The position numbers and the translations under genes were made by a program. Below, in pieces: positions 1 to 21,221 of a stretch of DNA of 37,726 nt. The DNA is from a virus (lineage: Duplodnaviria; Heunggongvirae; Uroviricota; Caudoviricetes). The stretch lies in the IMG/VR virus record IMGVR_UViG_2711768052_000002. The stretch is one strand, 5' to 3'. The stretch's first letter is position 1; each line of letters begins with the position of its first letter. The notes beneath the pieces are model-generated. The model saw only the letters and a list, made by a program, of their open reading frames with translations. It had not been told where the DNA came from and ran no database searches.

Positions 1-142
1 CATATTACGTGGGTAGGATCACGCAGGGGTCGGCCCATTTGAGCTTCAGATAGGAACGTTTGAATTCCTTTCACAAAATACATCACATACTGAACGTGAA
101 CATTCCCACTTTGATCTTAAGGCCAAAAAGTATGCAGGACTA

Positions 143-871
143 ATGATTTTTAGGGATAGCTTGAGAGTATTACCTTATGGTCGAGTAGATAATGATTTCT
201 TCCAGATAGAAGAAAGACGTTCATGGAATGCAGGGCGATATTATTGGTCTAATAGAAGGATTTTTGGTTATATTGGAATTACTCAATCCAGTAATAAAGA
301 GCTGAAAGATAAGTCGGGGAGAGAGGGATTCATAAGAAACCAGGCTGCAAGAGAACTGAAAACTATTATATCTAATTTGTTAACTGAACTTGCTGATAGA
401 TTTTTTGGTTCACGTTCTGATGACCGTAAAGAGCTTTTAGAACAAGTTAAGCGTGAAAAAGAGTTAAGAAAATCTGCTCAACAACAAGCTCGAAAATCAA
501 CACAAAAAAGTTTTTCAGAAGCTTTGAAGAATCAGACACCAGTTCTTGATGCTTCCTTGGAGGCTGTTAAAAGGCTGAAAACTAAGCTTGATAAAACTGA
601 TGGTTCGTTAGATTTAAACTATCTTAAAATTATAGACAGTGATCTTACAAACTTAGATGCGTTGCGCAGTGAAATTAAAACGCCTATCAAACCTCCAAAA
701 CTTGGAATGTATGAAGAGAAATATAGAGACTACAGAGATAAATTTAATGAGTTCTCTGCGTATATTCTACAAATGAAGTTAGCAATTAATAAACTTGATT
801 CTGAATTAAATAAACTTGAGCCTTCATTGTCAGCGAAAAATCACCTTGAAAAAAAATCAAGGTATTATTAA
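143..871 (+). CDS. N-terminal coiled-coil/sensor-like segment of a histidine-kinase-like protein (probably the 5' part of one gene continued in 816..1862 after a frameshift)
   Basis: ATG at 143 follows an in-frame stop at 14..16; Lys/Glu-rich heptad-like sequence (ELLEQVKREKELRKSAQQQARKS); ORF ends right after an A8 run (~848..855) while the downstream histidine-kinase frame is already open from ~810. Confidence 0.45.
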   Translation: MIFRDSLRVLPYGRVDNDFFQIEERRSWNAGRYYWSNRRIFGYIGITQSSNKELKDKSGREGFIRNQAARELKTIISNLLTELADRFFGSRSDDRKELLEQVKREKELRKSAQQQARKSTQKSFSEALKNQTPVLDASLEAVKRLKTKLDKTDGSLDLNYLKIIDSDLTNLDALRSEIKTPIKPPKLGMYEEKYRDYRDKFNEFSAYILQMKLAINKLDSELNKLEPSLSAKNHLEKKSRYY

Positions 872-1862
872 TTCTAAACTAACTAAGTTTAATAACACGA
901 TAGAGGAGAAGATACATTCTCTTTTAAAAAAATGGGCCGATGAAATAAAGGTTGATCGAAGTGATTATTATGCTAAAACTATATCAGTTGTTGATTCAAT
1001 AGATAATGATTCACAAATTGAAAATGTGTTTAATTTGCTCGATAGTTTATATGTTGAGTCAGTTGATACCCTAACTTTCAAATATCAATCAATAATAAAA
1101 GGTCTCGATAGATTATTTGAAGGTATAAACTTAGATTCAGCATTCTCATTATCTGAAGAAGAACGCTCATATTTTGAAGAAAAAGCTAAAAGTTTAAACG
1201 CGCTTGCACAGTTAGGTATTAGTGTTGAGATAATATCTCATGAACTTGAAGAAATGGATTCTATGGTAACCAGAGGACTAAACTCTCTTCCTACTTCTGT
1301 AAAAGAACACCCTGGTTTTTCATTGGCGTTAAATGCTCACAGATCGCTTACTCAACAAATACGTTTCTTATCACCTTTGAAAATATCAGGTTATCAATCC
1401 AGGCAGAGAATAACTGGAAAAAATATCATGGATTATGTCCTGAAGTTCTTTGGGGAGCGTTTCGAACGGCAACGAATAACTATTGAATTTAGTGAAGAGT
1501 TTAAGCAAATCGCAATAACAGATATACCATCAAGGATCTATCCTGTTTTTACTAATATTATCAACAATGCAATGTATTGGGTCAGTCTGTCAAATAATAG
1601 GCTCATAAAGATTGGTTTTGTGAATTCTTTGGTTATCATAGCAAATTCTGGTCCGGCAATTGATACCGATGATATCCCGCGACTATTTGAACTATTTTAT
1701 AGCAAAAGAGCAAATGGACATGGGGTAGGTCTGTATCTATGTCGAGAAAACCTTGCTGTTGCACATCATAAAATATGGTATTCAGAACCTGATGAAGGCG
1801 ATAACTATTTAATAAAAGATGGCGCTAATTTTGTGATCCAGTTCAATGGAGTGGAGTTCTAA
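816..1862 (+). CDS. histidine kinase catalytic core (HisKA-like H-box + HATPase_c/GHKL ATPase)
   Basis: H-box-like IISHELEEMDS; N-box-like FTNIINNAMYW; G1/F/G2 region ANSGPAIDTDDIPRLFELFYSKRANGHGVGLYLCRENL. Track start is a TTG; the first ATG in this frame is ~145 codons in, so the true N-terminus is probably supplied by ORF 143..871. Confidence 0.6.
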   Translation: MSLHCQRKITLKKNQGIINSKLTKFNNTIEEKIHSLLKKWADEIKVDRSDYYAKTISVVDSIDNDSQIENVFNLLDSLYVESVDTLTFKYQSIIKGLDRLFEGINLDSAFSLSEEERSYFEEKAKSLNALAQLGISVEIISHELEEMDSMVTRGLNSLPTSVKEHPGFSLALNAHRSLTQQIRFLSPLKISGYQSRQRITGKNIMDYVLKFFGERFERQRITIEFSEEFKQIAITDIPSRIYPVFTNIINNAMYWVSLSNNRLIKIGFVNSLVIIANSGPAIDTDDIPRLFELFYSKRANGHGVGLYLCRENLAVAHHKIWYSEPDEGDNYLIKDGANFVIQFNGVEF

Positions 1863-1863
1863 T

Positions 1864-3612
1864 ATGACAGTGGCAAATTATAATTCTCTTGTCCAGAAAA
1901 CTTTCTGCGAAAATGCAATTCGTTCCGTTGTCATGATTGATGACGATTTTCTGACGTATTCTGAATCAATCAGGGCGTTGAATAACGAAGTTGATTTAGA
2001 CTACAACAAAATTGACTCATCTAAACGAGCCGCTACTCTTGAGAGCTTTTTTCAATCTAAAAATATGATTTGTGATGTTGACAATGGTTCTGTTAATTTC
2101 GATGTGGATCGGATTAGAAAATCAGATCTTATTATTGTAGATTATCATCTTGATAATAATGCACCTGATAAAACACTTAAACCATTACAAGATTTGAAAG
2201 ACTCCGATCATTTAAATATGATTGTAATATATACTAGAGAGAATTTAGAAACGGTTTGGATGCAGATATCATCGACTCTCAAAGGTGCTCTGGATATCAA
2301 CAGCTTGATCATTGACTACGATAATGAAGATGTCCAAAGTTATTGGGAAGACGTTGTATTACCGAACTTAAATGATAATGGTAATAAAGCTCTCACAAGA
2401 GATGAAACAATAGCCTATATTAAAGACAGTAAGCCTTGTAGAAGAATTAAAAGATTAATACATGATGATGCTGTGTTGGAGGATCAAAAGGATAAAAACT
2501 TCATTGCAAAAATGATTGCAGAATATGCTGTGTCTAGAAATGCAATTATTTCTAGCAACACATCTGGCAATGTCATTCGGGGTGATGAAAGCGGAGTAAA
2601 ATGGATTCAATGTGGTAATATCTTTGTCTCCCTATTTCATAAGGTTCAAGATGATCATGAAAACGATGGAGATAGGATTTGGCAAACTCTCAATGATTCT
2701 CTCATTGAATGGAAACCATCTTATTATCAGTTAATAAAATCTGAAATTCAGAATGCAATCGAAGCTGAGGCTTTATCTTTTGTAAATCATTTGGCTAACG
2801 ATCATTACGGTCAAGCTGCGTGGTTAAATGAGATATTAAAATCAGACTCGCCTGATATTAGATGTAGAAATATTGACTTTGTATTTGGTAATTTATCAGA
2901 AGAGCTTTATCAAAGACTTAAAAATAATAATACGCTGGATGAATTTATCAAAAGTGTTTTTGATAGCTATTCAAATGAATACGCTAACAGCGGAGTTGCT
3001 GCATTGCTCCAATATTGCTCTTCAAAAATGGATCTGCCATCAAATAATGATACTTATCACGAAATGTATCATGCTTTAAATATGAATTTGTCTTCAAAGA
3101 ATTTTGAAGATGGTCATATTTCTACTGGCACTATTTTCTTTGATACAGAGTCGAACAAATGGTATTTATGTGTATCTGCGGCATGTGATTTGGTTCCTAC
3201 TCAGGGTAACGACCCTCACCATGTAAGATTAAGTCCGCACAGGCTCATTAAAGTTCTGGAGCTTTTTAACGCCAGTCAGAGTAAAGCATTGCCATTTGCT
3301 GAACATTCGAAATATATATATGTAATGCATAAAAATCAAAGAAAATATCTCTCTATTTTCGAAGGGGATAAAACGCTTCCTGTTGTTGATTATATGGTGG
3401 TGTTGAATCATGGAACAACAGTTGATGGCGAAGAAAAAAATATTATTTCTGCCGTGTTTTTAAGTAATATGGATGGCAACGTGCAAAATGTTCCTGTCCG
3501 ACTCAAACTTAAATCTCAACTGAGAACTGGTTATGCAGAAAGATATCAGGCTATAGCGTCTCAGTATAGCTCAAGGATTGGTGTGGATTATGTATCAATG
3601 ATGCTACCATAA
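1864..3612 (+). CDS. receiver (REC)-like domain protein with ~430-aa C-terminal domain of unknown function (candidate effector)
   Basis: N-terminal receiver-like motifs: VVMIDDDF (acidic pocket), DLIIVDYHLD (candidate phospho-Asp), MIVIYTREN (conserved Thr). Start placed at ATG 1864, just after the upstream stop with GGAG upstream; track alternative is ATG 1846. No recognisable motif in the C-terminal two thirds. Confidence 0.55.
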   Translation: MTVANYNSLVQKTFCENAIRSVVMIDDDFLTYSESIRALNNEVDLDYNKIDSSKRAATLESFFQSKNMICDVDNGSVNFDVDRIRKSDLIIVDYHLDNNAPDKTLKPLQDLKDSDHLNMIVIYTRENLETVWMQISSTLKGALDINSLIIDYDNEDVQSYWEDVVLPNLNDNGNKALTRDETIAYIKDSKPCRRIKRLIHDDAVLEDQKDKNFIAKMIAEYAVSRNAIISSNTSGNVIRGDESGVKWIQCGNIFVSLFHKVQDDHENDGDRIWQTLNDSLIEWKPSYYQLIKSEIQNAIEAEALSFVNHLANDHYGQAAWLNEILKSDSPDIRCRNIDFVFGNLSEELYQRLKNNNTLDEFIKSVFDSYSNEYANSGVAALLQYCSSKMDLPSNNDTYHEMYHALNMNLSSKNFEDGHISTGTIFFDTESNKWYLCVSAACDLVPTQGNDPHHVRLSPHRLIKVLELFNASQSKALPFAEHSKYIYVMHKNQRKYLSIFEGDKTLPVVDYMVVLNHGTTVDGEEKNIISAVFLSNMDGNVQNVPVRLKLKSQLRTGYAERYQAIASQYSSRIGVDYVSMMLP

Positions 3613-3684
3613 TTATTATATTTTAGGCGTGGTGATTTTTTTTTCGCCATGCCTATTTTATATTTATCATCACAATGATGTTGT

Positions 3685-4101
3685 TTATTTTTGTTTAAGT
3701 CTTCTAAGCTTCATGCATTCTAATGAGAATAATAATAGAGTTGTGCTGTATATAAAGCCAGAGTTAGTTAATAACTTTAAATTTAATGCTTCAGGATTTT
3801 CACTGAGAAAGTGAAAGGCATAAACTAAGTATACAGCTAAAGTAGCCGTTCCAATTGTTGGTCCAATATCGCCTTGATCATGAGGTTCAAGGTTTACATT
3901 GAACTTGAAGATTAGCCATTCAAATCCCCAAGTAAAAAAAACAACTAATATCATGGCTGCGAATAATTTCGCGATGTTATCTGCTGATGGATTCATCAGA
4001 ACAGATTGTTTCTGAAAAAATTCACAAAGTGAGAGTCCGAAAAAAATAAAAAAAAGTGGTCTGGAACTAAATTTTTCAAAAACTTTGAATAGGGTTTCCA
4101 T
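3685..4101 (-). CDS. small integral membrane protein, hypothetical
   Basis: 138-aa ORF with 3-4 hydrophobic stretches (LFFIFFGLSL, AAMILVVFFTWGFEWLIF, TATLAVYLVYAF, IYSTTLLLF); AT-rich; convergent with the kinase/receiver pair. Confidence 0.45.
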   Translation of the reverse strand: METLFKVFEKFSSRPLFFIFFGLSLCEFFQKQSVLMNPSADNIAKLFAAMILVVFFTWGFEWLIFKFNVNLEPHDQGDIGPTIGTATLAVYLVYAFHFLSENPEALNLKLLTNSGFIYSTTLLLFSLECMKLRRLKQK

Positions 4102-4139
4102 TTTCTTTACCTTCAGGATTATATTAGCTATTCTGATAC

Positions 4140-5411
4140 TTAGGCTACCAGAGCATTTGATCTTTGAGCTTGAACGTAATCACTCCACCATTGCATCAAA
4201 CTCTGTCGCTCTATCAGATATTCTGCACGATTGTATGCTGCGATAATTTCATCTTTTTTCGAGTGGGCAAGCGCTGCCTCAAGAACTTCAGCTCTGAATT
4301 TACCAGACTCCTCTGCCGCTGTTCGTGCAATAGAACGCATACCGTGAGCTACAAGCTCGCCTCCGAACCCCATTCGGATGATAGCTGCGTTGGCTGTTTG
4401 TTCATGCATATGATTAAGAGGCGCTTTTATGCTGGGGAAAACCCATTCTCTATGCCCACTTATTGATTTCATTAATTCAAGGATGCGCAAAGCTTCTTTA
4501 CTCAAAGGAACTTTGTGAAGCTTTTTCATTTTCATGAAATCAGCAGGAATGTTCCAAATGCTGTTGGTTGTATCAATATCAGACCACCTTGCGCGAACGG
4601 CTTCACCCGGACGAACCCATGTCAACAATTGCCATTCAATTAGCATACGTGTTTCCAACCGGATTGACGCATTCGTCAAAGATTCCATAAACCTTGGCAA
4701 TTCGCTTGGGGGAAGGGCAGGCATATTTTGCTTTTTTGGTTTACTGAATCTTTGACCAAGGTTGTCAGCCGGGTTGAACTCAATAAGTTCTTCAGTAGCT
4801 GCCCACCGGAAGATTTCATTCAGACGTGAAATGATACGGCGTAGAGTTTCCAATACGCCTCGTTGCTCAATAGGATCAAGGTGTTGTTTTAAGAGCTTAG
4901 GTCGGATCTCATTGATAGGGACATTACCCAGACCGGGAAAGACATTTCTCTCTAAGCTGCGCCAGATGTCTGCTGCATGGTCTTGTGAGATACCTGATGT
5001 CTTTACCTTCTCATCTAACCATTTCCGCGCTACGGCTTGGAGAGTGTGCTCAGTAGCACTCTTTAATGCCTTCGCCTTATCGTTGTTATGGATTTGGGGA
5101 TCAACACCATTTGCCAGAAAGGAGAGATATTCATCACGTAAGGCTCTGGCTCTTGCAAGGGTAAGGTGAGGATATGTCCCAAGGCTCATTTTGGTTCTTT
5201 TCTTGCTCACTGGTACTGCATACCTGAAATACCAATTTTTCTTGCCTCCTTTCGCCAAAGGAGCGATTCGTAGAATCAGACCATCACCGTCAAACAAGTT
5301 GATTTCTTTATCGGCTGGCTTGGTGCTTTTGATTTCAGTGTCAGTGAGCTTCTTAGCGATTTTTGCCATTTTGGGACCCTCGGTTTTTGGACCCTTCTTA
5401 GTGGGTCCCAT
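4140..5411 (-). CDS. int: tyrosine-type site-specific integrase, P4 family
   Basis: N-terminal arm-binding signature LTDTEIKSTKP...LFDGDGLILRI...KNWYFRY typical of P4/CP4-57 IntA-type integrases; C-terminal catalytic region (HGMRSIARTAAEESG, AAYNRAEY); sits next to the ssrA 3' fragment. Confidence 0.9.
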   Translation of the reverse strand: MGPTKKGPKTEGPKMAKIAKKLTDTEIKSTKPADKEINLFDGDGLILRIAPLAKGGKKNWYFRYAVPVSKKRTKMSLGTYPHLTLARARALRDEYLSFLANGVDPQIHNNDKAKALKSATEHTLQAVARKWLDEKVKTSGISQDHAADIWRSLERNVFPGLGNVPINEIRPKLLKQHLDPIEQRGVLETLRRIISRLNEIFRWAATEELIEFNPADNLGQRFSKPKKQNMPALPPSELPRFMESLTNASIRLETRMLIEWQLLTWVRPGEAVRARWSDIDTTNSIWNIPADFMKMKKLHKVPLSKEALRILELMKSISGHREWVFPSIKAPLNHMHEQTANAAIIRMGFGGELVAHGMRSIARTAAEESGKFRAEVLEAALAHSKKDEIIAAYNRAEYLIERQSLMQWWSDYVQAQRSNALVA

Positions 5412-5534
5412 TCAGGGTGCCATAACTCGTAGTTCTCAGCAATTCTCACTGGACGACAATAGACGTAAAAAAGCCCGCAGAGCTTGTGCTGTGTGGGCTT
5501 AGTAGACTTCATTGAACTTCAAACAACTAAAAAG

Positions 5535-5567
5535 TGGTGGAGCTGGCGGGAGTTGAACCCGAGTCCG
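5535..5567 (-). other. ssrA: 3'-terminal fragment of ssrA (tmRNA) - putative att core repeat
   Basis: Minus-strand reading CGGACTCGGGTTCAACTCCCGCCAGCTCCACCA matches the recalled 3' acceptor/T-arm end of E. coli tmRNA (one mismatch) including CCA; flanking sequence on the 5' side does not continue as tmRNA, so only the terminal ~33 nt are present. Confidence 0.75.
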
Positions 5568-5578
5568 AATTTTTTTAA

Positions 5579-6397
5579 CTATCTGTTTTTATTAAAATCA
5601 TGCTCATCCATAAAATCTGCGTAGCTTTTGCGTATCCTTTCTAGGACAACCTGTGTCCAACACTGTTTGGATGTGAAAAGAATATCTATGTCTAAAATTA
5701 GATCTAAGCCATTTCCGTAAAAAGATACGCTCTTAAATTCTGTTGTGAAAATTTTCTTTCTTTTCTTATTGTTTACATCTCTATATTCAAGGATAAGGTC
5801 CGGCCCTATAAACGATGAGATGGAGGTGGTTACAAGATAATTACCAATTAATTCTGGCACCAATGGGGGAAATGGTATGGTTGTTTTCTCTTTGTCTTTA
5901 ATATTCGGAGTTATAAATTCTATCAAAGTTCCTTTTTTTTGAAAGCTATTATGTTTTTGCGGACCTCTACCAAAAATATCAACATTCAAGAAGTTATTGT
6001 TGTCTTTGATTGTAAAAAACTCTTCATTTTGCAAAAATATCTCATGTGATTTTTGTGTGTTGTTATTATCTATTTTGAATTTGTTTATCTTAATATATTT
6101 CTCATACTCTTCAGACCAGTAGTGATTTATTTTTATAGCTGGGCCAAGACCTATGTTGAGAAGCTCTATATTCAAAGTGGTTGGTGATATTTCTATGTTC
6201 TTAAATAATTTCAAGTTATCTCTGTGCATCCATGTGAATTTTGTATTCTTAGGTAAAATTTGAGGTTTGTTTGAAATTATTCTTTGCTGCCATGTTTGGT
6301 ACATTGCAAAAAATGCAATTATGACACTTATTATGGCTATGAAGTCGGTAGTGGTAATTGAGTAACCTAACATTTTTATTAAATCTGTGTTATTCAT
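5579..6397 (-). CDS. hypothetical membrane-anchored protein (single N-terminal TM helix), AT-rich cargo gene
   Basis: 272-aa ORF; N-terminal hydrophobic helix FIAIISVIIAFFAMY then a Lys/Asn-rich soluble domain; located between the ssrA att fragment and the prophage integrase. Confidence 0.5.
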   Translation of the reverse strand: MNNTDLIKMLGYSITTTDFIAIISVIIAFFAMYQTWQQRIISNKPQILPKNTKFTWMHRDNLKLFKNIEISPTTLNIELLNIGLGPAIKINHYWSEEYEKYIKINKFKIDNNNTQKSHEIFLQNEEFFTIKDNNNFLNVDIFGRGPQKHNSFQKKGTLIEFITPNIKDKEKTTIPFPPLVPELIGNYLVTTSISSFIGPDLILEYRDVNNKKRKKIFTTEFKSVSFYGNGLDLILDIDILFTSKQCWTQVVLERIRKSYADFMDEHDFNKNR

Positions 6398-6436
6398 GTG
6401 AAATCTCTACTTCCAATCAGAAGTAGAGATTATCAT

Positions 6437-7612
6437 TTAATTAGTACAATTTATCAAATGATTGTGTGTGCTATTGTTATCATAATCTTTAAGATAACGG
6501 CCGTAATGCCTAAATAGCATTTCTGGTCCTTTATGCCCCATTTGAGCGGCTAACCAAAACAAATTAACACCTTGACTAATGTGTTTTGTAGCAAATGTAT
6601 GTCTAGTTTGATAAGGATTACGGTAACGGACTCCGGCTTTACGTAAAGTTGGCACCCATGCCTTCTTTCTTATGGCGTCTGCGCTGGCCCAAGGTTTATT
6701 GGTTTTTGGATCTTCAAAGACAGTCGCGTCCTTCATGAAAGTGAACGGTTTCTGATTTATTAGTGCAGACATTGCTTCATCTGTCAGTTCAACTTTTCGA
6801 GTACCTGCTTTTGTTTTGGTACCTTTGATTACACCAACAACACTGGCGCTCTGGACGTGGGCAGTCCTCCCTACAAAGTCAATATCACGCCATCTAAGGG
6901 CACATAATTCAGAACTACGCAGACCTGTATTTATAGCGAACCGGAACAGATTCTCCCATTGTTTGTTTCCGGCTGCTGCTAGTAATGCATCAACTTCTGC
7001 TGGTGATAGCGGATCAACCACGTAGCGGCTTTCTGCTTCTGACTTATCACTTTGGTAGCGCGAAGCAGTTACCAACGATACGGGGTTAATTTGAAGTACC
7101 CCATCGGTTACGGCTTCATCAAGTGCTGACCGCAGGAAAGATAACTGGTTGCGAATTGTTTTTAAGGTCGTTTTCTGGCTTTGAATCCACGCTTTCAGGA
7201 TTGCTGGTGTTAATTCACTTGCAGAGCAAATGTGGAGTGAGGCTAACGCACTACGGCATTTTTTATAACCACCAATCGTAGAGGGTGAAAGTTTTCTCGT
7301 TTCGCAGATTTCAAGGTATTCGTCCAAGTACATTTTTACCGTTTTGCCTGCAGCAGCATTACCAAAAATTTTCAAACGAGCAGAACGGGGAAAATATTCC
7401 GCATAAATGAATGTTCCCCTTTCGATCTTATTATGAATTTCACCGAGTGTGCGCTCGGCGTATTTTATGTTCTTTGGTGTTACTTCCAGATTGGAAAGAG
7501 GCTCACGACATTTAACTCCTTTGTAGGTGAAAGTTATATTGATCGTTTCGCCCTGGCGGTGTTTCCTGATTGTTACGCCGCGCGGTAGTTTGAGCAGTTT
7601 TGTCTGGCCCAT
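6437..7612 (-). CDS. int: tyrosine-type integrase, lambda family
   Basis: 391 aa; catalytic-domain motifs (GLRSSELCALRWRDID, HKGPEMLFRHYGRYL with catalytic Tyr context, RHTFATKHI); 5' end overlaps the upstream xis-like ORF as in lambda. Confidence 0.9.
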   Translation of the reverse strand: MGQTKLLKLPRGVTIRKHRQGETINITFTYKGVKCREPLSNLEVTPKNIKYAERTLGEIHNKIERGTFIYAEYFPRSARLKIFGNAAAGKTVKMYLDEYLEICETRKLSPSTIGGYKKCRSALASLHICSASELTPAILKAWIQSQKTTLKTIRNQLSFLRSALDEAVTDGVLQINPVSLVTASRYQSDKSEAESRYVVDPLSPAEVDALLAAAGNKQWENLFRFAINTGLRSSELCALRWRDIDFVGRTAHVQSASVVGVIKGTKTKAGTRKVELTDEAMSALINQKPFTFMKDATVFEDPKTNKPWASADAIRKKAWVPTLRKAGVRYRNPYQTRHTFATKHISQGVNLFWLAAQMGHKGPEMLFRHYGRYLKDYDNNSTHNHLINCTN

Positions 7613-7791
7613 TTTGCAACCTCACTAAGATCAATCCACCTCTCCTTAACGCCTTCAACCTTTAAAACCTGAACACCTTCACGCCAAACACCGCGCTGTA
7701 CACGTTTGTTTATTGCTTCAGGAGTTTCGCCAGTTTCTTTGCAATAAGTTGAGATTGGAACACAATCGAGGTTCAGCATATGTTTCTCCAC
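7573..7791 (-). CDS. xis: excisionase (Xis-like) / AlpA-type DNA-binding protein
   Basis: 72-aa basic protein directly upstream of and overlapping int; winged-helix-like segment ETPEAINKRVQRGVWREGVQ resembles the lambda Xis pattern. Confidence 0.6.
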   Translation of the reverse strand: MEKHMLNLDCVPISTYCKETGETPEAINKRVQRGVWREGVQVLKVEGVKERWIDLSEVAKWARQNCSNYRAA

Positions 7792-8348
7792 TTAGCCCGC
7801 TGCACACGGGCAGTAATATCAAATTTCAGTGCATCTTGTCGGAATAAACCTCTGCCAGATAGCAGAAACATATTTTGCCTGAGGGCGGGCATCAGCCAGA
7901 GCACCTCTGCAGGGGCGGTTAGTTTCTCCACAAAACAGAGAAGAACACCTGCGGTAGTCACTGCCGGATGGATTGGGTTATGAGCCCATCGTCCGGTGAT
8001 GCTCTTCTCTGTTTTGTAAAAATGATGGTACCAGCCGGAAGCAAGGGTACAAGCTGGTACCGCCAAGACTACACACAGCATAAAGTTGTGGTGCCGGGTG
8101 CCTCCCGGTGCCTGGCGAAGGTTGCACACCAGGCGGGTGGGTATCCACAGAAGGTCGACTGTCAGCCTCAACCTTAACCCGCGTGCGCTGAGCCGCATTC
8201 ACCACAACGCTAAGGATTCTCTCTGGTTGAAAATACTTAGCTGTTATGTGCCTGCTTTTAGCCACATCAGGCGAGGTGGACCTAGTTATTCCCCAACAAC
8301 AAGGATTCGGTTAATCTGGTTATCCCCAACAACGCAAAAGGAAAAGAA

Positions 8349-9195: not shown

Positions 9196-9870
9196 TTAGG
9201 CTTTGATTTTGTATCTTCTTGGTTTTCCTGAGAAAATCACTGTACCAATTATAGAGCAATTACCGTTGATCTTAATGTAAGGCTCAGGCCAGTTTGGGTT
9301 TAACGCTTTGAGATAACGCTGTGTCCCATCTTCTATCAACCTTTTGAAGGTGGTTTCGCCTGTATCGTGCATCAATGCAATAACGTCGTCACCGTGGCAG
9401 GCAGGTACTTCAGGATCGACAAAAATCATGTCTCCCGGGCGGTACTCATCAATCATTGAATCACCTATCACCCGCAAGATATAAGTCATTTCCCCACAGG
9501 GTACAGGGCAGGGATACGTTTCTGCTGTGCTCAAATCAACCTCAGAATATCCAACTTCTTTCCATGCTCCGGCCTGTACCCATGATATGACAGGGACTAA
9601 TGTGATTTGTTTATTAGTGATTGAAACATCAGGTTTTTTTGTGATGTTCGTTGTCTGGTGTTCTTGATCGAGCCATCCGACAGGCAGGTCGAAACATTTT
9701 TCGATGTGTCGTGCCATGCTGTCACCGATATTTTTAGTAGCACCATCTCCCATAAACCTGCTGGTCTGGGTTGGCTCGCGATCAATCATAGTGGCAAAGG
9801 AAGAATTCCCGCCAACACCATCTCTCAGTTTTCTGGCGTTAGACCGCCGGATGTCATGGATTGTTTTCAT
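9196..9870 (-). CDS. cI: CI-like phage repressor (N-terminal HTH, C-terminal LexA/S24 peptidase autocleavage domain)
   Basis: C-terminal S24 signature VIGDSM with downstream Lys-containing segment; N-terminal DNA-binding region; divergent from a cro-like gene across an operator-bearing intergenic region. Confidence 0.85.
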   Translation of the reverse strand: MKTIHDIRRSNARKLRDGVGGNSSFATMIDREPTQTSRFMGDGATKNIGDSMARHIEKCFDLPVGWLDQEHQTTNITKKPDVSITNKQITLVPVISWVQAGAWKEVGYSEVDLSTAETYPCPVPCGEMTYILRVIGDSMIDEYRPGDMIFVDPEVPACHGDDVIALMHDTGETTFKRLIEDGTQRYLKALNPNWPEPYIKINGNCSIIGTVIFSGKPRRYKIKA

Positions 9871-10756: not shown

Positions 10757-11091
10757 ACAGTTTAACAACACACTACCGTCGCTCGCAACTGATTGCGCTT
10801 CCTGTACCGGGTGGAAAAGCGAAGGTGGAGTATTGCTATGCAGTAAATGTACCAGGTGACAGGGAAATTGTAACCCACAGCTTTGCAGAGTGGGCTGTGG
10901 GTGATTTCAACCGGCAGAAGGAGACAGTCCTTTGCGACAAGTTAACCGCTGGTTCAAAGATCACTACGGAGTGCCCGTCAGAGTCATTCGTTGGGAGCCG
11001 GAAACACAACGGGTTATCTACCTCTGTGAAGGCTATGAGCATGAGTGCTTCAGCCCGCTCGAACAGTTTCGTTGTAAATTCAGGGAAATAG
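10753..11091 (+). CDS. hypothetical protein
   Basis: 112-aa ORF with ATGA start/stop overlap with the upstream gene (translational coupling); no motif recognised. Confidence 0.35.
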
Positions 11092-11100
11092 AGGTCGGTC

Positions 11101-12042
11101 ATGAGCACTAAATTAACCGGCTATGTATGGGATGGTTGCGCTGCATCAGGCATGAAATTATCCAGCGTGGCAATTATGGCCCGCCTGGCTGATTTCAGTA
11201 ATGACGAAGGTGTGTGCTGGCCATCAATTGAAACCATTGCCCGTCAGATTGGCGCGGGGATGAGTACCGTCAGAACGGCTATCGCACGGCTGGAAGCAGA
11301 AGGCTGGTTAACGCGTAAGGCGCGTCGCCAGGGTAACCGCAATGCGTCGAATGTTTATCAGCTTAACGTTGCGAAGCTTCAGGCAGCGGCATTTTCTCAA
11401 CTGTCAGATTCTGACCCGTCAAAATCTGACGCATCAAAATCTGACCCGTCAAAATTTGATGCGTCGAAATCTGGCAAAAAAGCGGGTTTTCACCCGTCAG
11501 AATCTGGCGGGGATCCGTCAGTAAAATCAAAACATGATCCGTCAGATAAAAAAACTTCTCGTCCGGACGCTTCGCAACCGGACACGCAGACGGCTGAACA
11601 GGAGTTTTTAACTCGCCATCCTGATGCGGTTGTATTCAGCCCTAAAAAGCGCCAGTGGGGAACGCAGGATGATTTGACCTGCGCACAGTGGCTCTGGAAA
11701 AAAATCATCGCCCTGTACGAGCAGGCCGCCGAATGTGACGGCGAGGTGGTTCGTCCCAAAGAACCGAACTGGACAGCCTGGGCAAACGAAATTCGCCTGA
11801 TGTGTGTGCAGGATGGTCGTACTCACAAACAAATCTGCGAGATGTACAGCCGCGTCAGCCGCGATCCGTTCTGGTGCCGTAACGTGCTCAGCCCGTCGAA
11901 GCTGCGGGAAAAATGGGATGAGCTTTCCCTGCGCTTATCGCCGTCCGTCAGCATGTACACCGAAAAACGCGAAGACCCGTACTTCAAAGCCAGTTACGAC
12001 AATGTGGACTACAGCCAGATCCCGGCAGGATTCAGGGGGTGA
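11101..12042 (+). CDS. replication initiator, lambda O-like (N-terminal HTH DNA-binding domain, internal iteron-encoded linker)
   Basis: N-terminal HTH segment (IETIARQIGAGMSTVRTAIARLEAEGWL); central low-complexity SDPSKSDASKSDPSKFDASKS encoded by tandem iterons; position after cII-like gene. Confidence 0.7.
   Translation: MSTKLTGYVWDGCAASGMKLSSVAIMARLADFSNDEGVCWPSIETIARQIGAGMSTVRTAIARLEAEGWLTRKARRQGNRNASNVYQLNVAKLQAAAFSQLSDSDPSKSDASKSDPSKFDASKSGKKAGFHPSESGGDPSVKSKHDPSDKKTSRPDASQPDTQTAEQEFLTRHPDAVVFSPKKRQWGTQDDLTCAQWLWKKIIALYEQAAECDGEVVRPKEPNWTAWANEIRLMCVQDGRTHKQICEMYSRVSRDPFWCRNVLSPSKLREKWDELSLRLSPSVSMYTEKREDPYFKASYDNVDYSQIPAGFRG
11405..11555 (+). repeat. candidate replication-origin iterons inside the O-like gene
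   Basis: At least four tandem 15-bp units CTGAC(C/G)C(G/A)TCAAAAT (about 11411..11470), more degenerate copies (CCGTCAGAATCTGG, CCGTCAGTAAAATC, CCGTCAGATAAAAA), then an A-rich stretch. Confidence 0.5.
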
Positions 12043-12533
12043 TCATGAGTCTTTTGAATGACGTTCAGAAATTCATTGAAGCCCATCCGGGGTGTACTTC
12101 CGGAGACATTGCGGATGCTTTTGCAGGTTACTCACGACAGCGCGTTCTGCAGTCAGCAAGCAAGTTACGTCAGAGTGGGCGTGTGGCTCACCGTTGTGAA
12201 GGGGATACACGCAGACATTTCCCGCGCCTGACTGAGAGAGCGCAGGAGCCGGAACCACAACCAGTTCGTGAAACCAGACCTGTGCGCAATTTCTATGTCG
12301 GCACTAACGATCCCCGGGTGATTTTGTGCCTGACCCGCCAGGCTGAAGAACTGGAGTCAAGGGGCTTATACCGTCGTGCTGCAACCGTGTGGATGGCGGC
12401 ATTCCGTGAAAGCCACTCCCAGCCAGAACGAAACAATTTTCTGGCGCGTCGTGAGCGGTGCTTACGGAAAAGCAGCAAGCGCGCTGCATCGGGTGAAGAG
12501 TGGTATCTGTCAGGGAATTACGTGGGGGCTTAA
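12039..12533 (+). CDS. hypothetical basic protein (possible DNA-binding, follows replication initiator)
   Basis: 164-aa Arg-rich ORF beginning at GTG overlapping the O-like stop; no confident family assignment. Confidence 0.45.
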   Translation: MIMSLLNDVQKFIEAHPGCTSGDIADAFAGYSRQRVLQSASKLRQSGRVAHRCEGDTRRHFPRLTERAQEPEPQPVRETRPVRNFYVGTNDPRVILCLTRQAEELESRGLYRRAATVWMAAFRESHSQPERNNFLARRERCLRKSSKRAASGEEWYLSGNYVGA

Positions 12534-13186
12534 TGAGTAATAAATATTGCCAGGCGCTGGTGGAACTGCGGAACAAACCAGCCCATGAACTGAAGGAAGT
12601 GGGCGATCAGTGGCGCACGCCGGACAACATTTTCTGGGGAATTAACACCCTGTTTGGCCCGTTTGTTCTGGATCTGTTCACTGACGGTGATAACGCCAAA
12701 TGTGCTGCGTATTACACGGCGGAAGACAACGCGCTGGCGCATGACTGGTCAGAACGTCTTGCGGAGCTTAAAGGGGCTGCCTTTGGTAATCCCCCATACA
12801 GCCGCGCCAGTCAGCATGAGGGACAATACATCACCGGCATGCGTTACATCATGAAACATGCCAGTGCCATGCGTGATAAGGGTGGGCGCTATGTTTTCCT
12901 GATCAAAGCTGCCACCAGCGAAGTGTGGTGGCCGGAAGATGCAGATCATATTGCTTTTATTCGCGGGCGTATTGGTTTTGAACTGCCTGCCTGGTTTATC
13001 CCGAAGGATGAGAAGCAGGTGCCGACAGGCGCTTTCTTCGCTGGTGCTATTGCTGTTTTCGACAAGACCTGGAAGGGACCGGCAATCAGCTACATCGGGC
13101 GCGATGAACTTGAGGCATGTGGTGAGGCCTTTCTGGCGCAGGTTCGCCAGCAGGCGGAAAAACTGGTCAGGGAGATGGCGGCATGA
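12533..13186 (+). CDS. phage N6-adenine DNA methyltransferase (Dam-like, orphan)
   Basis: Catalytic motif FGNPPYS (NPPY/DPPY motif IV of N6-adenine methyltransferases); start placed at ATG overlapping the upstream stop (TAATG); no adjacent restriction endonuclease gene. Confidence 0.8.
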   Translation: MSNKYCQALVELRNKPAHELKEVGDQWRTPDNIFWGINTLFGPFVLDLFTDGDNAKCAAYYTAEDNALAHDWSERLAELKGAAFGNPPYSRASQHEGQYITGMRYIMKHASAMRDKGGRYVFLIKAATSEVWWPEDADHIAFIRGRIGFELPAWFIPKDEKQVPTGAFFAGAIAVFDKTWKGPAISYIGRDELEACGEAFLAQVRQQAEKLVREMAA

Positions 13187-13509
13187 CGACATTAACTCAA
13201 TGCCAGCAGCAGGTGCTGGATATGCTGATTTCTTATCAGAAAGAGCGTGGCTTTCCGCCAACCAATCAGGAGGTGGCAACCATGCTGGGATACCGTTCGG
13301 TGAATGCAGCGGTGGAGCATCTTCGCGCACTGGAGAAAAAAGGCGTCATCACGATAAAGCGTGGCGTGGCCCGGGGGATAACGCTTCATACCGCGGTGAA
13401 GGACGACGACAGCGAGGCGGTCGGGATTATCCGCGCACTGCTTGCCGGTGAGGAAAACGCAAGGCTGCGTGCAACCCACTGGTTACATGAGAGGGACCTG
13501 AAAGTATGA
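13183..13509 (+). CDS. LexA N-terminal DNA-binding-domain-like protein (no peptidase domain)
   Basis: TQCQQQVLDMLISYQKERGFPPTNQEVATMLGYRSVNAAVEHLRALEKKGVI parallels E. coli LexA residues ~1-70 (recalled ...[52 protein letters not shown]...); the ORF stops after 108 aa with no S24 motif. Confidence 0.65.
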   Translation: MTTLTQCQQQVLDMLISYQKERGFPPTNQEVATMLGYRSVNAAVEHLRALEKKGVITIKRGVARGITLHTAVKDDDSEAVGIIRALLAGEENARLRATHWLHERDLKV

Positions 13510-13895
13510 AGCTGATCCTGCCTTTTCCGCCCAGCGTGAACACGTACTGGCGACACCCCAACAAAGGGGCGTTTGCTGGTAAGAGCCTGATAAGCGCGGC
13601 GGGGCGAAAATTCCAGAGCGCGGCGTGCGCAGCAATAGTTGAGCAGTTACGTCGTCTGCCGAAACCAACGTCGGCACCTGCTTCAGTGGAGATCGTGTTG
13701 TTTCCTCCGGATAACCGGATCCGCGATCTTGACAACTATAACAAGGCGCTGTTTGACGCCCTGACCCACGCGGGTGTGTGGGAAGACGACAGTCAGGTGA
13801 AAAGAATGCTGGTGGAGTGGGGGCCGGTTATCCCGGAAGGGAAGGTCGAGATCACTATCAGTAAGTACGAGAAAACGGCGGGTGCAGCCGCCTGA
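13506..13895 (+). CDS. rusA: RusA-family Holliday junction resolvase
   Basis: Size 129 aa and conserved RusA pattern (LPFPPSVNTYWRH, catalytic-region DLDNYNKALFDALTHAGVWEDDSQV). Confidence 0.85.
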   Translation: MKLILPFPPSVNTYWRHPNKGAFAGKSLISAAGRKFQSAACAAIVEQLRRLPKPTSAPASVEIVLFPPDNRIRDLDNYNKALFDALTHAGVWEDDSQVKRMLVEWGPVIPEGKVEITISKYEKTAGAAA

Positions 13896-13914
13896 TTAAG
13901 AGGAGAAACGAAGT

Positions 13915-14712
13915 ATGAATAATCTGATGGTCATTGATGGTATTGAAGTTCGTCGTGATGCTTATGGGCGTTACAGCCTGAACGATCTGCACAGGGCTGC
14001 CGGTTCTCAGGATAAGCATAAGCCTGCATTCTGGCTCCGCAATGAGCAAACCGAACGTTTAATAAGCGAGTTGCAGATTTGCAACTCGGTCAATATAGAG
14101 CCAGTTAACGTTAGTCGTGGCGGAAATAACCAGGGGACGTATGTCTGCAAAGAACTGGTGTATGCCTATGCAATGTGGATCAGCCCGTCATTCCATCTGA
14201 AGGTGATCCGTACTTTCGATATGGTAACCAGCGCACCGGAAAAATTATCCGGGCAGGCTGCTGACAAGATGCAGGCTGGCGTGATTCTGCTGGACTTTAT
14301 GCGCCGGGAGTTAAACCTGTCTAACTCATCTGTGCTTGGGGCCTGTCAGAAACTCCAGGAGGCTGTTGGCTTACCGAATCTGGCACCACGCTATGCCATT
14401 GATGCTCCTGCTGACGCGCCTGATGGCTCAAGTCGCCCTACGCTGTCGCTGAGTGCACTGCTGAAACAGTATGGTATCCGCCTGACAGCTAATCAGGCAT
14501 ATCACCAGATGGCGAAGCTGGGGATCGTTGAACAACGCGAACGATACAGCCGTACCGCGATTAACAACATCAAAAAATTCTGGTCGCTGACGGCGAAAGG
14601 CTGCATGTTCGGCAAGAACATCACCAGTCCTGCAAATCCACGCGAGACGCAGCCGCATTTCTTCGAATCCCGATTCCCTGAGCTGTTAAAGCTGCTCGAT
14701 ACCGTTCATTGA
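13915..14712 (+). CDS. KilA-N domain protein (antirepressor-like)
   Basis: N-terminal KilA-N-like pattern (YSLNDLHRAAG...KPAFWLRNEQTERLI); strong RBS AGGAG upstream. Confidence 0.7.
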   Translation: MNNLMVIDGIEVRRDAYGRYSLNDLHRAAGSQDKHKPAFWLRNEQTERLISELQICNSVNIEPVNVSRGGNNQGTYVCKELVYAYAMWISPSFHLKVIRTFDMVTSAPEKLSGQAADKMQAGVILLDFMRRELNLSNSSVLGACQKLQEAVGLPNLAPRYAIDAPADAPDGSSRPTLSLSALLKQYGIRLTANQAYHQMAKLGIVEQRERYSRTAINNIKKFWSLTAKGCMFGKNITSPANPRETQPHFFESRFPELLKLLDTVH

Positions 14713-16120: not shown

Positions 16121-17452
16121 TTACTGGATGAATGACATTTGATTAATATATTTTATCAATAACTCTCTGGGTGTAGTACTCCAAAAATTTAGGTGTTCAT
16201 AATCAGTATAAACATTGGTGAATTTTTTAAGTTCTTCATCACTTTTAGGGGCAAATCGCTCATTAAGAGTAATACTGTCTTTAATTATTCCGAAGAATAC
16301 AATAGATATTTCAGGAATTTGCGATCTTCTCTCATAAGAATAAGGTATTTCTTTTATGTTAAGCAGATCTGCTAAATGAGATATAGATTCTGCGGTAATT
16401 TCTTGTTTTAGTTTTTCCTTGTCACCAAAGCAATGTATGAAGACAGCTACGACAAAGATCTTATTTATTAAAGGATCACTGTTTTTGTACTCATCGTCGT
16501 TTAATAGTTGAAAAATGTTAAGATTGCGTGAAAAAGTTTGTGTTTCACGTAAGGATAAGTTGGTTCGTTGAATTAAATCACGGATAAATCTACCAGATAA
16601 ACTATTAATTTCATTTAATGATTTTGTCTTGTCTACAAGGTAATTCCAATATATAACAGATGTTTTACATACGACGTGACCATTTATTAAACATGTGTCT
16701 GGAAGCGTGATGGTATATTTTATAAACTTGTCAAGATACTTTTGTGAGTTAATACTATAACCATAAATATGATTTATCGATGCTTTTAATTGTTCTGTGT
16801 TTGTAACTAAAATAAAAAAGACATTATTGATGTCAAAAATGTGTTTTATTGTTTCAATGACATTTGTTGAAAAACTCGGCTTACATCGGTCTAATTCATC
16901 AATTATAATTACTATCTTTTGACTTTCTGAAATGCTTTCGATACAAGATTTAAGTGAATTTATGTTTTTCTCTGATTCCATATGGTCTTCAAGCAAATTT
17001 TCAATAGTCCCATCTATTGCTGCATTGCTTGCTTTCTTCATCGCATCTTGGAATTCTTCGGAAACTTCACTAGCCTCCTGTCGTAAAAACCAACCTGCAC
17101 CAGCTTTTAGTACCGTTTTTAAACCAAAGCGAATTGCAGGAAGAGATCTCTTAATGAAGTGTTGTTTTTCTTCCTCAGGTAAAATGCTGGCAATTGCAGA
17201 GGTTATGAGAAGTAATGGAGATTCTGCATGATCCCCTTTAAAGGCATCAATATAAACAACTTTAGATTCAGTTTCTTGCTCAATAATGAGATTTTTCAGT
17301 TTGATACTAAATTCTGTTTTCCCTGTTCCCCATGCGCCGTCTATTACCAGTGGTGAAATGTCTGCCTCTGGTTTTAGCAACTTGATGATATTTTCAGCGA
17401 TGTTTCTGCGTTGGAACTCGTCACGTTCAGTGAAAGATAGTGTATCTAACAT
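16121..17452 (-). CDS. KAP-family P-loop NTPase (moron cargo)
   Basis: Walker A in KAP form GAWGTGKTEF and Walker B IVIIIDELDRCKP (the DELDR signature typical of KAP NTPases); AT-rich; opposite strand to the phage operons; inserted between Q and the late terminator. Confidence 0.7.
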   Translation of the reverse strand: MLDTLSFTERDEFQRRNIAENIIKLLKPEADISPLVIDGAWGTGKTEFSIKLKNLIIEQETESKVVYIDAFKGDHAESPLLLITSAIASILPEEEKQHFIKRSLPAIRFGLKTVLKAGAGWFLRQEASEVSEEFQDAMKKASNAAIDGTIENLLEDHMESEKNINSLKSCIESISESQKIVIIIDELDRCKPSFSTNVIETIKHIFDINNVFFILVTNTEQLKASINHIYGYSINSQKYLDKFIKYTITLPDTCLINGHVVCKTSVIYWNYLVDKTKSLNEINSLSGRFIRDLIQRTNLSLRETQTFSRNLNIFQLLNDDEYKNSDPLINKIFVVAVFIHCFGDKEKLKQEITAESISHLADLLNIKEIPYSYERRSQIPEISIVFFGIIKDSITLNERFAPKSDEELKKFTNVYTDYEHLNFWSTTPRELLIKYINQMSFIQ

Positions 17453-19094: not shown

Positions 19095-19721
19095 TCAGTT
19101 GTCAAATGAATATACGTTAAAGGTATATGTCGACATAATTTCACCAAGTACCTCAATACATATACTTTTTTTATGAAAGATACTGGGGAAGGAACTTAGC
19201 TCTTCAAGGCATTGCACATAAGTGCTGATATCACTTGCATCACGTTCAAGGAATTTCACTTGGCCAAAAGAAGGAGTATTAATCCTAGTTCTTTGCTGGA
19301 TTATATGGATAAAATGTGTAGTTGGTGAAACTATTACTCTTGAAATATCGGAAATGATGTCTTCTTGAACTTGCCGATAAAGTAAATCCTTTGGGTAATG
19401 GTGTTTGATCTCGATGGTTGCAACATTGCCATTATGTTCAGACGTTAATATCGACTGGTTATAAAGTGATATGTCAACAGCGCCGATACCGAGTTTTGGA
19501 TGCTCACTTAAAGCAGTTAGTGTGCTGATTTGATTGAGAATAACAACTAACTCATCACGTATTTGAGTTTCATGTTTGCGATTGTAGAAGTAGCAATTCA
19601 GTTCATTTAACTTTTTATGCATCCTATCGTGACTAATTGCTTCGATCAGTAAATCCTGAATCATACTTTTCTCTAGGTAATCCGAACGGTTGTAAGTGAC
19701 AGTATTGTGCTGGCATGTCAT
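19095..19721 (-). CDS. hypothetical protein, possible PD-(D/E)xK-type nuclease (moron cargo)
   Basis: 208-aa AT-rich ORF on the strand opposite the phage late genes; GAVDIS...(~20 aa)...VATIEIKHH fits a D...E-x-K nuclease arrangement (tentative). Confidence 0.5.
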   Translation of the reverse strand: MTCQHNTVTYNRSDYLEKSMIQDLLIEAISHDRMHKKLNELNCYFYNRKHETQIRDELVVILNQISTLTALSEHPKLGIGAVDISLYNQSILTSEHNGNVATIEIKHHYPKDLLYRQVQEDIISDISRVIVSPTTHFIHIIQQRTRINTPSFGQVKFLERDASDISTYVQCLEELSSFPSIFHKKSICIEVLGEIMSTYTFNVYSFDN

Positions 19722-20726: not shown

Positions 20727-21221
20727 ATGGCTGGAACGGCGGGGCGTTCCGGGCGTCGCCCCAAGCCAACGGCGCGCAAGGCGCTGGCCGGAAACCCCGG
20801 CAAGCGAGCCCTGAATAAAGATGAACCTGTTTTTACGCCCATCAAAGGTGTTGAGCCACCGGAGTGGTTCGCTGAAGAAGATCTCCCTCTCGCCACGATC
20901 ATGTGGCAACTGACAACCAAAGAACTCTGCGGTCAGGGCCTGCTGTGCGTGACTGACCTCGCGGTGCTTGAGCGGTGGTGCGTGGCCTATGAGTTCTGGC
21001 GACGTGCCGTGAAAAATATTGCCAGCCAGGGCAACACCATTACCGGTGCAATGGGCGGTATGGTCAAAAACCCGGAGCTGACCGCCAAGAAAGAACAGGA
21101 GTCCGAGATGAGCAGCACGGGGGCAATGCTCGGACTCGACCCCAGCAGCCGCCAGCGTCTGATTGGCCTGGCGGGGCAGAAGAAAGCCACTAACCCGTTT
21201 CTGAAAATCATCGAGTCATGA
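20727..21221 (+). CDS. terminase small subunit (P27-family-like)
   Basis: N-terminal basic segment ([29 protein letters not shown]) typical of P27-type small terminases; AGGAG RBS 10 nt before ATG 20727; overlaps terL start. Confidence 0.8.

Follow-up and report, generated by a model that had tools for sequence, protein, structure and literature searches.

The locus and its two genes

The DNA analysed here, referred to below as the window, is a stretch of 37,726 nucleotides (nt) from a virus of the Caudoviricetes (IMG/VR record IMGVR_UViG_2711768052_000002), and the element in question lies at its left end, where a histidine-kinase-like gene is followed by the gene of a receiver-domain protein. 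Sequence comparison suggests, with a probability of roughly 70%, that positions 1-3612 are what is left of the 3' part of a mobile cassette of three genes, which was decapitated at an IS3 element and sits on a P4-integrase island in ssrA. The anatomy of the locus and its family assignment can be given with high confidence. Open reading frames (ORFs) are present at 143-871, 816-1862 and 1846-3612 on the plus strand and at 3685-4101 and 4140-5411 on the minus strand. A first-pass annotation had taken ORF 816-1862 as a kinase gene which, together with the receiver gene, might form an undescribed two-component-type anti-phage module. Pfam searches bear out both the kinase core of this ORF and the receiver-like N-terminus of the next one, while the gene limits did not hold, since ORFs 143-871 and 816-1862 are parts of one 5'-truncated gene.

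This truncated gene, of the paraMORC/histidine-kinase-like type, spans positions 22-1862 (plus strand) and corresponds to residues ~405-994 of an intact protein of ~990 amino acids. Its DHp (phospho-acceptor) domain at 1209-1385 (plus strand) matches the Pfam model HEF_HK (PF19191) with an E-value of 3e-6 and 28.1 bits against a cut-off of 24.1 (residues 132-190 of ORF 816-1862), and has SHELEE as its H-box. The HATPase_c domain (PF02518, 1.2e-11) follows at 1527-1802 (plus strand), equivalent to residues 238-329 of the same ORF, with N, F and G2 boxes present and Asn in place of Asp in the G1 box. No match to HATPase_c_3, a domain of GHKL type, was obtained with Pfam in the window, where the gene starts at the IS3 junction, and phmmer aligned the window fragment with the HK_mid and HK_C parts of the intact protein and not with the GHKL head. 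Among 42 full-length kinase-like homologues the H-box His is kept in at least 90%, and 'sHE', the N-box NNxxYW, the F box, the G2 box GhGVGLYL and the N-terminal GHKL motifs ELWKNAxDA, DxGxGM and QGxKGIGRLS are conserved. A middle block, RDxLRVxPYGR ... NKELKDKSGREG, is strongly conserved in the same set and still present in the window. Judged by its sequence, the kinase-like protein is soluble and of the histidine-kinase type; a 2026 preprint describes PF19191 as being without the Thr/Asn phosphatase motif.

The receiver-domain protein (582 amino acids, RefSeq WP_000214996) is encoded at 1864-3612 on the plus strand, its ATG lying 1 nt past the kinase stop codon, and the E. coli copies of 582 residues are labelled 'response regulator receiver domain' protein in RefSeq. 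It is 99% identical to cluster P0001 (1966 member sequences). A 453-residue variant cluster, P0008, with 1605 members resembles a common truncation of the receiver protein and may consist of partial sequences from contig ends. The Response_reg_2 (PF19192) receiver domain occupies positions 1918-2646 (plus strand) and includes a helical insertion of ~100 residues between beta4 and beta5; the Pfam match (4e-30) covers residues 25-181 of the ORF, and the remaining ~400 residues have no Pfam match. The canonical set of a two-component receiver (acidic pair, phospho-acceptor Asp, Thr/Ser and Lys) is present as D26/D27, D93, T124 and K260, and these residues, together with the H-box His of the kinase-like protein, are invariant or nearly so among the homologues.

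The receiver protein ends in a family-specific output domain

Positions 2647-3609 (plus strand) encode the C-terminal output domain of the receiver protein. Fold search with the full-length model returned receiver domains only, and residues 262-582 were therefore modelled alone. The model of these 320 residues (pLDDT 82.6) consists of a six-helix bundle, a beta barrel, a short helix and a tail with the invariant sequence R-I-G-V-D. Residues H403, N406, G422, C436, C441, D442, P445, R460, Q552, R554, Y557, R571, G573 and D575 of the domain are invariant or nearly so. Hidden Markov model (HMM) searches of Pfam, NCBIfam, PADLOC and the PDB sequences gave no match for the C-terminal ~320 residues (against the PDB sequences the whole receiver protein was likewise without a match), Foldseek of the model against the PDB gave no significant match, and neither a helix-turn-helix (HTH) nor any other DNA-binding output was found on the receiver protein by Pfam, HMM or fold search, in agreement with the first-pass annotation, which had seen no motif or DNA-binding signature in this part. 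A PD-(D/E)xK nuclease, an HNH nuclease and a PUA/SRA-like reader were also considered for the domain and set aside, as no fold or motif supported them.

A profile of the domain matched 671 of 1.84 billion representative proteins. No other architecture was seen in the top 150 of the 671, in which the domain always forms approximately residues 260-600 of proteins of about 600 amino acids; on these top 150 matches, the domain exists solely behind a Response_reg_2 receiver. The predicted barrel bears a weak resemblance to MazF/CcdB, which is a lead and not a finding: there is no sequence similarity to MazF, Kid or CcdB, the catalytic Arg and Thr of MazF are not conserved, the Foldseek comparison is not significant, and the window domain differs from these toxins in sitting behind a helical bundle with no paired antitoxin.

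Intact relatives form a three-gene cassette with a DNA methylase

Database search with the receiver protein yielded 111 relatives. In the closest one outside E. coli (locus L004), whose receiver protein is 86% identical, the genes lie on an island that has a P4-type integrase on one side and smpB on the other, and form a tightly packed operon in the order C5 DNA methyltransferase (393 amino acids, PF00145, 3e-61), kinase-like protein and receiver protein. The kinase-like protein of L004 has 994 residues, with HATPase_c_3 at 31-142, HEF_HK at 778-836 and HATPase_c at 884-987. The same gene arrangement is seen in a second locus (L005), beside a P4-like satellite; in both, the kinase-like protein has 991-998 residues and the cassette genes overlap or sit 1 nt apart. 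The satellite next to L005 carries a SIR2_2 and HerA (DUF87) pair (11041-14068 of that locus), which places this cassette in a defence hotspot. According to these sequences, the intact protein of ~990 residues is composed of a MORC-like GHKL head, a middle region with a coiled coil, the DHp domain and the kinase ATP-binding domain, and the intact receiver protein of ~590 residues is Response_reg_2 fused to the family-specific output domain.

The linkage was surveyed in 50 further loci, one genome per species, by scoring their ORFs with phmmer, and both flanks of the kinase-receiver pair were readable in 44 of them, from many phyla. A C5 methyltransferase directly adjoins the pair in 42 of the 44, mostly upstream with an overlap or a gap of at most 130 bp and in some cases immediately downstream; only L023, which has none, and L031, where it is 3.5 kb away, deviate. 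The conserved unit is therefore the methylase, the GHKL/kinase protein and the receiver protein. The description of the pair as a two-gene two-component module was not borne out, the unit having three genes and the kinase-like protein normally possessing an N-terminal GHKL ATPase (the HATPase_c_3 head is present in L004, L005 and 42 other relatives).

Vsr genes were found near 14 loci, consistent with real production of 5-methylcytosine if gene content is a guide. HNH-type nuclease genes lie near about nine loci and an NgoMIV-type enzyme near one, while most loci are without a separate nuclease gene. Profile and fold searches found no recognisable restriction endonuclease domain in the three core proteins. 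The GHKL head of the L004 protein (gene at 5025-8009, residues 16-139) matches the PADLOC/REBASE type II restriction enzyme model PDLC03419 (1.6e-9), indicating that some REBASE enzymes share this ATPase head. Both the loci survey and the earlier family study (PMC8011034) place the family in defence and restriction-modification (R-M) surroundings, the type of neighbourhood that had been expected.

An IS3-associated deletion removed the methylase and the sensor head

The first 21 bp of the window (1-21) are the end of an IS3 element, its terminal inverted repeat, and mark the deletion junction, as recognised by comparison with the E. coli chromosome L001, in which the IS3 transposase, as annotated, stops 30 bp upstream and the 21 bp before the junction are identical. 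This sequence, CATATTACGTGGGTAGGATCA, is the right inverted repeat of IS3 in reverse complement. The kinase-like reading frame is open from nt 17, so that in the ancestral protein the ATG at 143, from which RefSeq annotates an unbroken 572-residue 'ATP-binding protein' in L001-L003, stands for an internal Met. The fragment is homologous to the L004 protein from ~nt 23 on, starting with 'DAGVGPFE', and aligns from about residue 405. In L001-L003 the pair is preceded by IS3 and a truncated amylase gene, without a methylase; further upstream, beyond this amylase pseudogene, lies the core gab/csiD region. The sequence comparison shows that an IS3-associated deletion took out the gene of the methylase and ~405 codons from the 5' end of the kinase-like gene. 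What remains, as the same alignments show, is a headless DHp and ATP-binding (CA) fragment, frameshifted in the window, and an intact receiver-effector gene, and it is because of this deletion that the window fails two features typical of the family, the GHKL head and the linked methylase.

The junction is common to all four truncated E. coli copies inspected (L001, L002, L003 and MIN6). Strains without IS3 carry slightly different extra deletions at the same junction, which makes the IS3-bearing form ancestral, and the four copies therefore go back to one event.

In the window the remaining kinase-like frame is further interrupted by a run of eight A at 849-856 (plus strand). Every other copy compared directly has seven (blastn against L001; the closest genome, MIN6, also has A7), and the extra A shifts the frame, so that one gene is read as the overlapping ORFs 143-871 and 816-1862. 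A terminator-like hairpin directly 3' of the receiver gene (3624-3655, plus strand) contains a T9 run at 3636-3644 where the other genomes, the closest included, have T8. These are the two homopolymer length differences from other genomes across the 5.5 kb compared, and both are private to the window. The idea of a working module in the window is not supported, since the deletion beside IS3 has taken away methylase and GHKL head and what is left of the ORF is frameshifted. A promoter scan of window 1-4200 was uninformative, its matches being not above those of shuffled sequences, with no promoter-like site from IS3 to the ATG.

Spread and evolution in E. coli

The window is E. coli DNA, and prevalence was determined in 5426 complete genomes of that species. 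Window 1-4200 has a match in 613 of them, and in 560 the remnant is matched over no less than 80% of the query with an identity of 99% or above. In none of the complete E. coli genomes searched did we find the methylase and GHKL head that belong to the window's own lineage. Intact paralogous cassettes occur in 7 genomes for the type of strain CE0026f (L056, 5809-11769) and in ~212 for the type of strain SE15 (L058, 6102-13294). In SE15 the methylase lies 94 bp upstream of the kinase-receiver pair, and a gene for an HNH_2-like 'phosphorothioated DNA-binding restriction endonuclease' lies 245 bp downstream of it.

The ratio of nonsynonymous to synonymous substitution rates (dN/dS) against the intact L004 genes is 0.05 for the kinase part and 0.085 for the receiver, which shows long-term constraint during most of the history of the genes and a recent decapitation. 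The ratio is mute on constraint since the deletion, the E. coli copies being more than 99% identical.

Previous descriptions of the family

The kinase-receiver pair is an already described family: it is the HEF_HK/Response_reg_2 pair of Bellieny-Rabelo, Pretorius & Moleleki (Genome Biol Evol 2021, PMC8011034), represented by PF19191 and PF19192, and that study already included E. coli members. The authors reported 91.6% linkage of the pair over 644 regions, found HATPase_c_3 + HEF_HK + HATPase_c to be the predominant architecture (HATPase_c_3 in 83% of members), and noted enrichment of C5 methylases, Vsr and HNH_2 as well as a relationship to the paraMORC ATPases, which had been described as R-M components by Iyer et al. 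2008 (PMC2292703). They proposed a regulatory two-component system (TCS) tied to R-M.

Members of the family are also listed in DefensePredictor (Science 2026), where Table S5 gives the truncated 572-residue kinase WP_000577254.1 as a predicted novel defense gene with log-odds of 6.6 and WP_000214990.1, a receiver variant that RefSeq has for this locus in L002, with log-odds of 12.0. The claim of an undescribed variant therefore falls. The pair tested in that work, WP_000236931 + WP_000886597, is the SE15-type kinase and receiver, in a construct without the adjacent methylase and the downstream HNH gene; the strains were not reported as toxic. No experimentally named defence system with a methylase/GHKL-kinase/receiver architecture was found in the literature.

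Possible function of the intact cassette and alternative explanations

The remnant is probably inactive in its original role, a non-functional relic, as far as its sequence allows this to be judged. For the intact family a phosphorelay-gated, methylation-linked defence mechanism may be considered, with somewhat less than even confidence. In such a mechanism the methylase would mark host DNA as self, and the GHKL/MORC head would act as an ATP-driven DNA clamp or a sensor of DNA state, perhaps with the methylase serving in recognition, as it does in type III R-M or BREX. Sensing would lead to autophosphorylation of the DHp His, the phosphoryl group would pass to Asp93 of the receiver, and the C-terminal domain, once released, would have nucleic acid as its target or would stop the cell or the invader in some other way. 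One deletion that removes methylase and sensor head together could disarm such a system without death of the host. The non-defensive strains lacking the methylase would fit a need of the methylase for recognition, and they would fit an inactive or unexpressed construct equally well.

A bolder version is tentative and on balance unlikely, namely that the intact family (L004, CE0026f, SE15) constitutes a new immune class in which a DNA-clamping MORC-type ATPase reads the methylation set by its own C5 methylase and a phosphorelay activates an orphan MazF/CcdB-like effector. If true, the cassette would be a phosphorelay-gated hybrid of restriction-modification or abortive infection, and the published negative test would be explained by the methylase (and HNH gene) left out of the construct. 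More remote is the idea of an exaptation in which the headless remnant of E. coli now serves as a module without a sensor.

Several observations weigh against a relic of a defence cassette. In the 42 homologues the G1 box mostly reads N-x-G-P and not the canonical D-x-G-x-G. The frameshift of the window may be a homopolymer sequencing error, the pattern pointing to long-read assembly errors. In L001-L003 the annotation shows the two remnant ORFs as intact, and identity is at least 99% over 560 genomes, which makes residual function possible. The DefensePredictor pair, cloned in MG1655 under pBAD (TUs 2CM2 and 2CMP), was scored as non-defensive, and apart from that screen our literature search found no phosphotransfer, methylation or defence experiment on any family member.

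It is improbable, in our judgement, that the pair is an ordinary cytoplasmic regulatory TCS which controls neighbouring R-M genes and is not an effector system, as suggested in PMC8011034. The canonical His and Asp chemistry is indeed conserved, methyltransferases are neighbours, and Vsr, HNH or NgoMIV-type nucleases are sometimes close enough to be targets. However, the receiver protein shows no HTH or DNA-binding output in Pfam, HMM or fold searches, most loci offer no separate nuclease to control, the pair stands in a tight operon with the methylase on islands and satellites, and the kinase bears an ATPase of the MORC type, as is typical of R-M and Shedu machinery.

The truncated pair could also be a still working, methylase-independent two-component anti-phage module, in which the headless DHp and CA fragment phosphorylates the receiver-effector on infection. 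The 572- and 582-residue ORFs intact in L001-L003, their near identity in 560 of the 5426 genomes, the retention of all catalytic residues of kinase and receiver, the position on an ssrA island beside other mobile and defence cargo and the DefensePredictor log-odds of 12.0 (WP_000214990.1) and 6.6 (WP_000577254.1) would all agree with it. Yet the pair has lost its sensor head and the methylase that nearly all relatives have as a partner, translation is annotated from an internal Met, the stretch from IS3 to the ATG has no promoter-like site (with matches not above shuffles), the copies diverge too little to show selection, and the ORF of the window is frameshifted. In addition, a full-length paralogous kinase and receiver without methylase gave no defence, and the DefensePredictor scores track family sequence features and not the integrity of the system. 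We hold a working pair to be quite improbable.

Very unlikely is a classical R-M system with a vestigial His-Asp relay and a divergent restriction endonuclease as the receiver C-terminal domain: the C5 methyltransferase linkage (42 of 44 loci), the match of the GHKL head to a REBASE-derived type II enzyme model and the known role of paraMORCs in R-M speak for it, but the domain has no PD-(D/E)xK, HNH, GIY-YIG or PLD signature or fold, the phosphorelay residues (His, Asp, Thr and Lys) do not vary between phyla, an argument for their use, and MG1655 strains with the pair minus the methylase (expression unverified) were made and listed, something one would not expect of an unguarded enzyme.

Under the preferred reading, a decapitated remnant, the window locus itself matters little, being a decayed member of a family for which Pfam models have existed since 2021 and whose E. 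coli members were flagged by a 2026 machine-learning screen. The conserved unit of the family has three genes and the sole reported functional test cloned two, so the negative outcome should not close the question. Found in ~10% of complete genomes, the E. coli remnant is a naturally occurring pair of headless kinase and effector that should not be counted as intact in defence censuses, and it could serve as a ready construct for phosphotransfer assays.

Relation to known systems

To our knowledge, in no other family is a MORC-like GHKL ATPase joined to a histidine-kinase module and connected with a receiver-gated orphan domain under a DNA methylase. The window shares with the HEF_HK/Response_reg_2 pair both Pfam domains, above curated cut-offs, and likewise has adjacent, co-oriented genes for a soluble kinase-like protein and for a receiver without any other known domain; its relatives share the linkage to C5 methylase, Vsr and HNH. 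The window copy differs in being frameshifted and without HATPase_c_3 and the upstream methylase. It would fit the minority 'group 2' architecture of PMC8011034, but as a deletion product and not as a natural variant.

With Detocs (Rousset et al. 2023, bioRxiv 10.1101/2023.01.24.525353) the locus shares the concept of a cytoplasmic histidine kinase signalling to a receiver fused with a non-transcriptional effector. That system has the kinase DtcA with an N-terminal TPR sensor, the stand-alone buffer receiver DtcB and usually a PNP ATP-nucleosidase effector, with no methylase (bioRxiv 10.1101/2023.01.24.525353), whereas the family of the window has a GHKL/MORC ATPase as sensor, a C5 methylase as obligate partner and an orphan effector domain. 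No TPR match was found in the window kinase, the intact relatives having HATPase_c_3; no ORF that could encode a DtcB-type receiver lies within the 1 nt between the pair or beside it, where IS3 and the gene of a small membrane protein are found; and no PNP or other known cell-killing family or fold was detected in the receiver protein. The earlier view that the locus is not Detocs is thus upheld by the lack of a DtcB-type gene, a TPR sensor and a PNP effector. For the window proteins PADLOC gave no specific match, and NCBIfam likewise gave nothing specific.

Intact relatives share their N-terminal HATPase_c_3 head, with conserved ATP-binding motifs, with the paraMORC R-M ATPases (PMC2292703) and GHKL-Shedu (VcSduA, PMC12137116), and linkage to C5 methylase and Vsr as well as lateral movement are common to them all. 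The head is absent from the window. The paraMORCs as described end in S5, nuclease or TIR domains, whereas the present family ends in a DHp and CA kinase that would signal to a separate receiver. By analogy, the intact cassette resembles type III R-M and BREX in closely coupling a methylase with large ATPase proteins in one operon, and differs from them in having no helicase, PglZ or Res-type nuclease.

Island setting and neighbouring genes

The GC content is 0.33-0.35 over window 1-4000 and mostly 0.50-0.59 in the later prophage part. The AT-rich pair was correctly placed beside a P4-type integrase and an ssrA attachment (att) boundary: the tyrosine integrase of the island (4140-5411, minus strand), also annotated in L001, has the domains Arm-DNA-bind_3, Phage_int_M and Phage_integrase, the usual set of P4-type enzymes, and a 35-nt copy of the ssrA 3' end, an att remnant, lies at 5535-5569 (plus strand) as a single match with one mismatch and none expected by chance. 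Alignment to L001 stops inside ssrA, with a tailed prophage beyond. Scans for transfer-messenger RNA (tmRNA) and tRNA genes and for Rfam families found no whole tmRNA/ssrA gene in the window; the tandem prophage fills the ssrA site, so the intact ssrA must be outside the window.

Convergent with the cassette, at 3685-4101 (minus strand), lies the gene of a small hydrophobic protein of 138 residues (phrog_6556, 1e-70). A phrog_6556 gene is also found 3' of the receiver gene in the Citrobacter, Erwinia and Serratia relatives (L005-L008 and L011), and not in L004, and it may be an accessory gene of the enterobacterial cassette lineage.

The tailed prophage occupies 5570-37726, in tandem with the old P4-type island at ssrA, and encodes an integrase (6437-7612, minus strand), an S24 repressor-like protein (9196-9870, minus strand), a terminase (21218-22951) and a tape measure protein (30442-32349). 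Between the att remnant and the prophage integrase lies an AT-rich ORF of 272 residues (5579-6397, minus strand; phrog_7259) with no Pfam or PADLOC match, in a position typical of prophage cargo. A low-GC prophage ORF of 208 residues at 19095-19721 (minus strand) likewise gave no match in Pfam or PADLOC. An AT-rich moron (16121-17452, minus strand; GC ~0.30) encodes a KAP-family P-loop NTPase (Pfam, 6e-70) that matches the PADLOC candidate defence model PDC-S20 (7.6e-177) and, more weakly, PifA, and is likely a prophage-borne defence gene.

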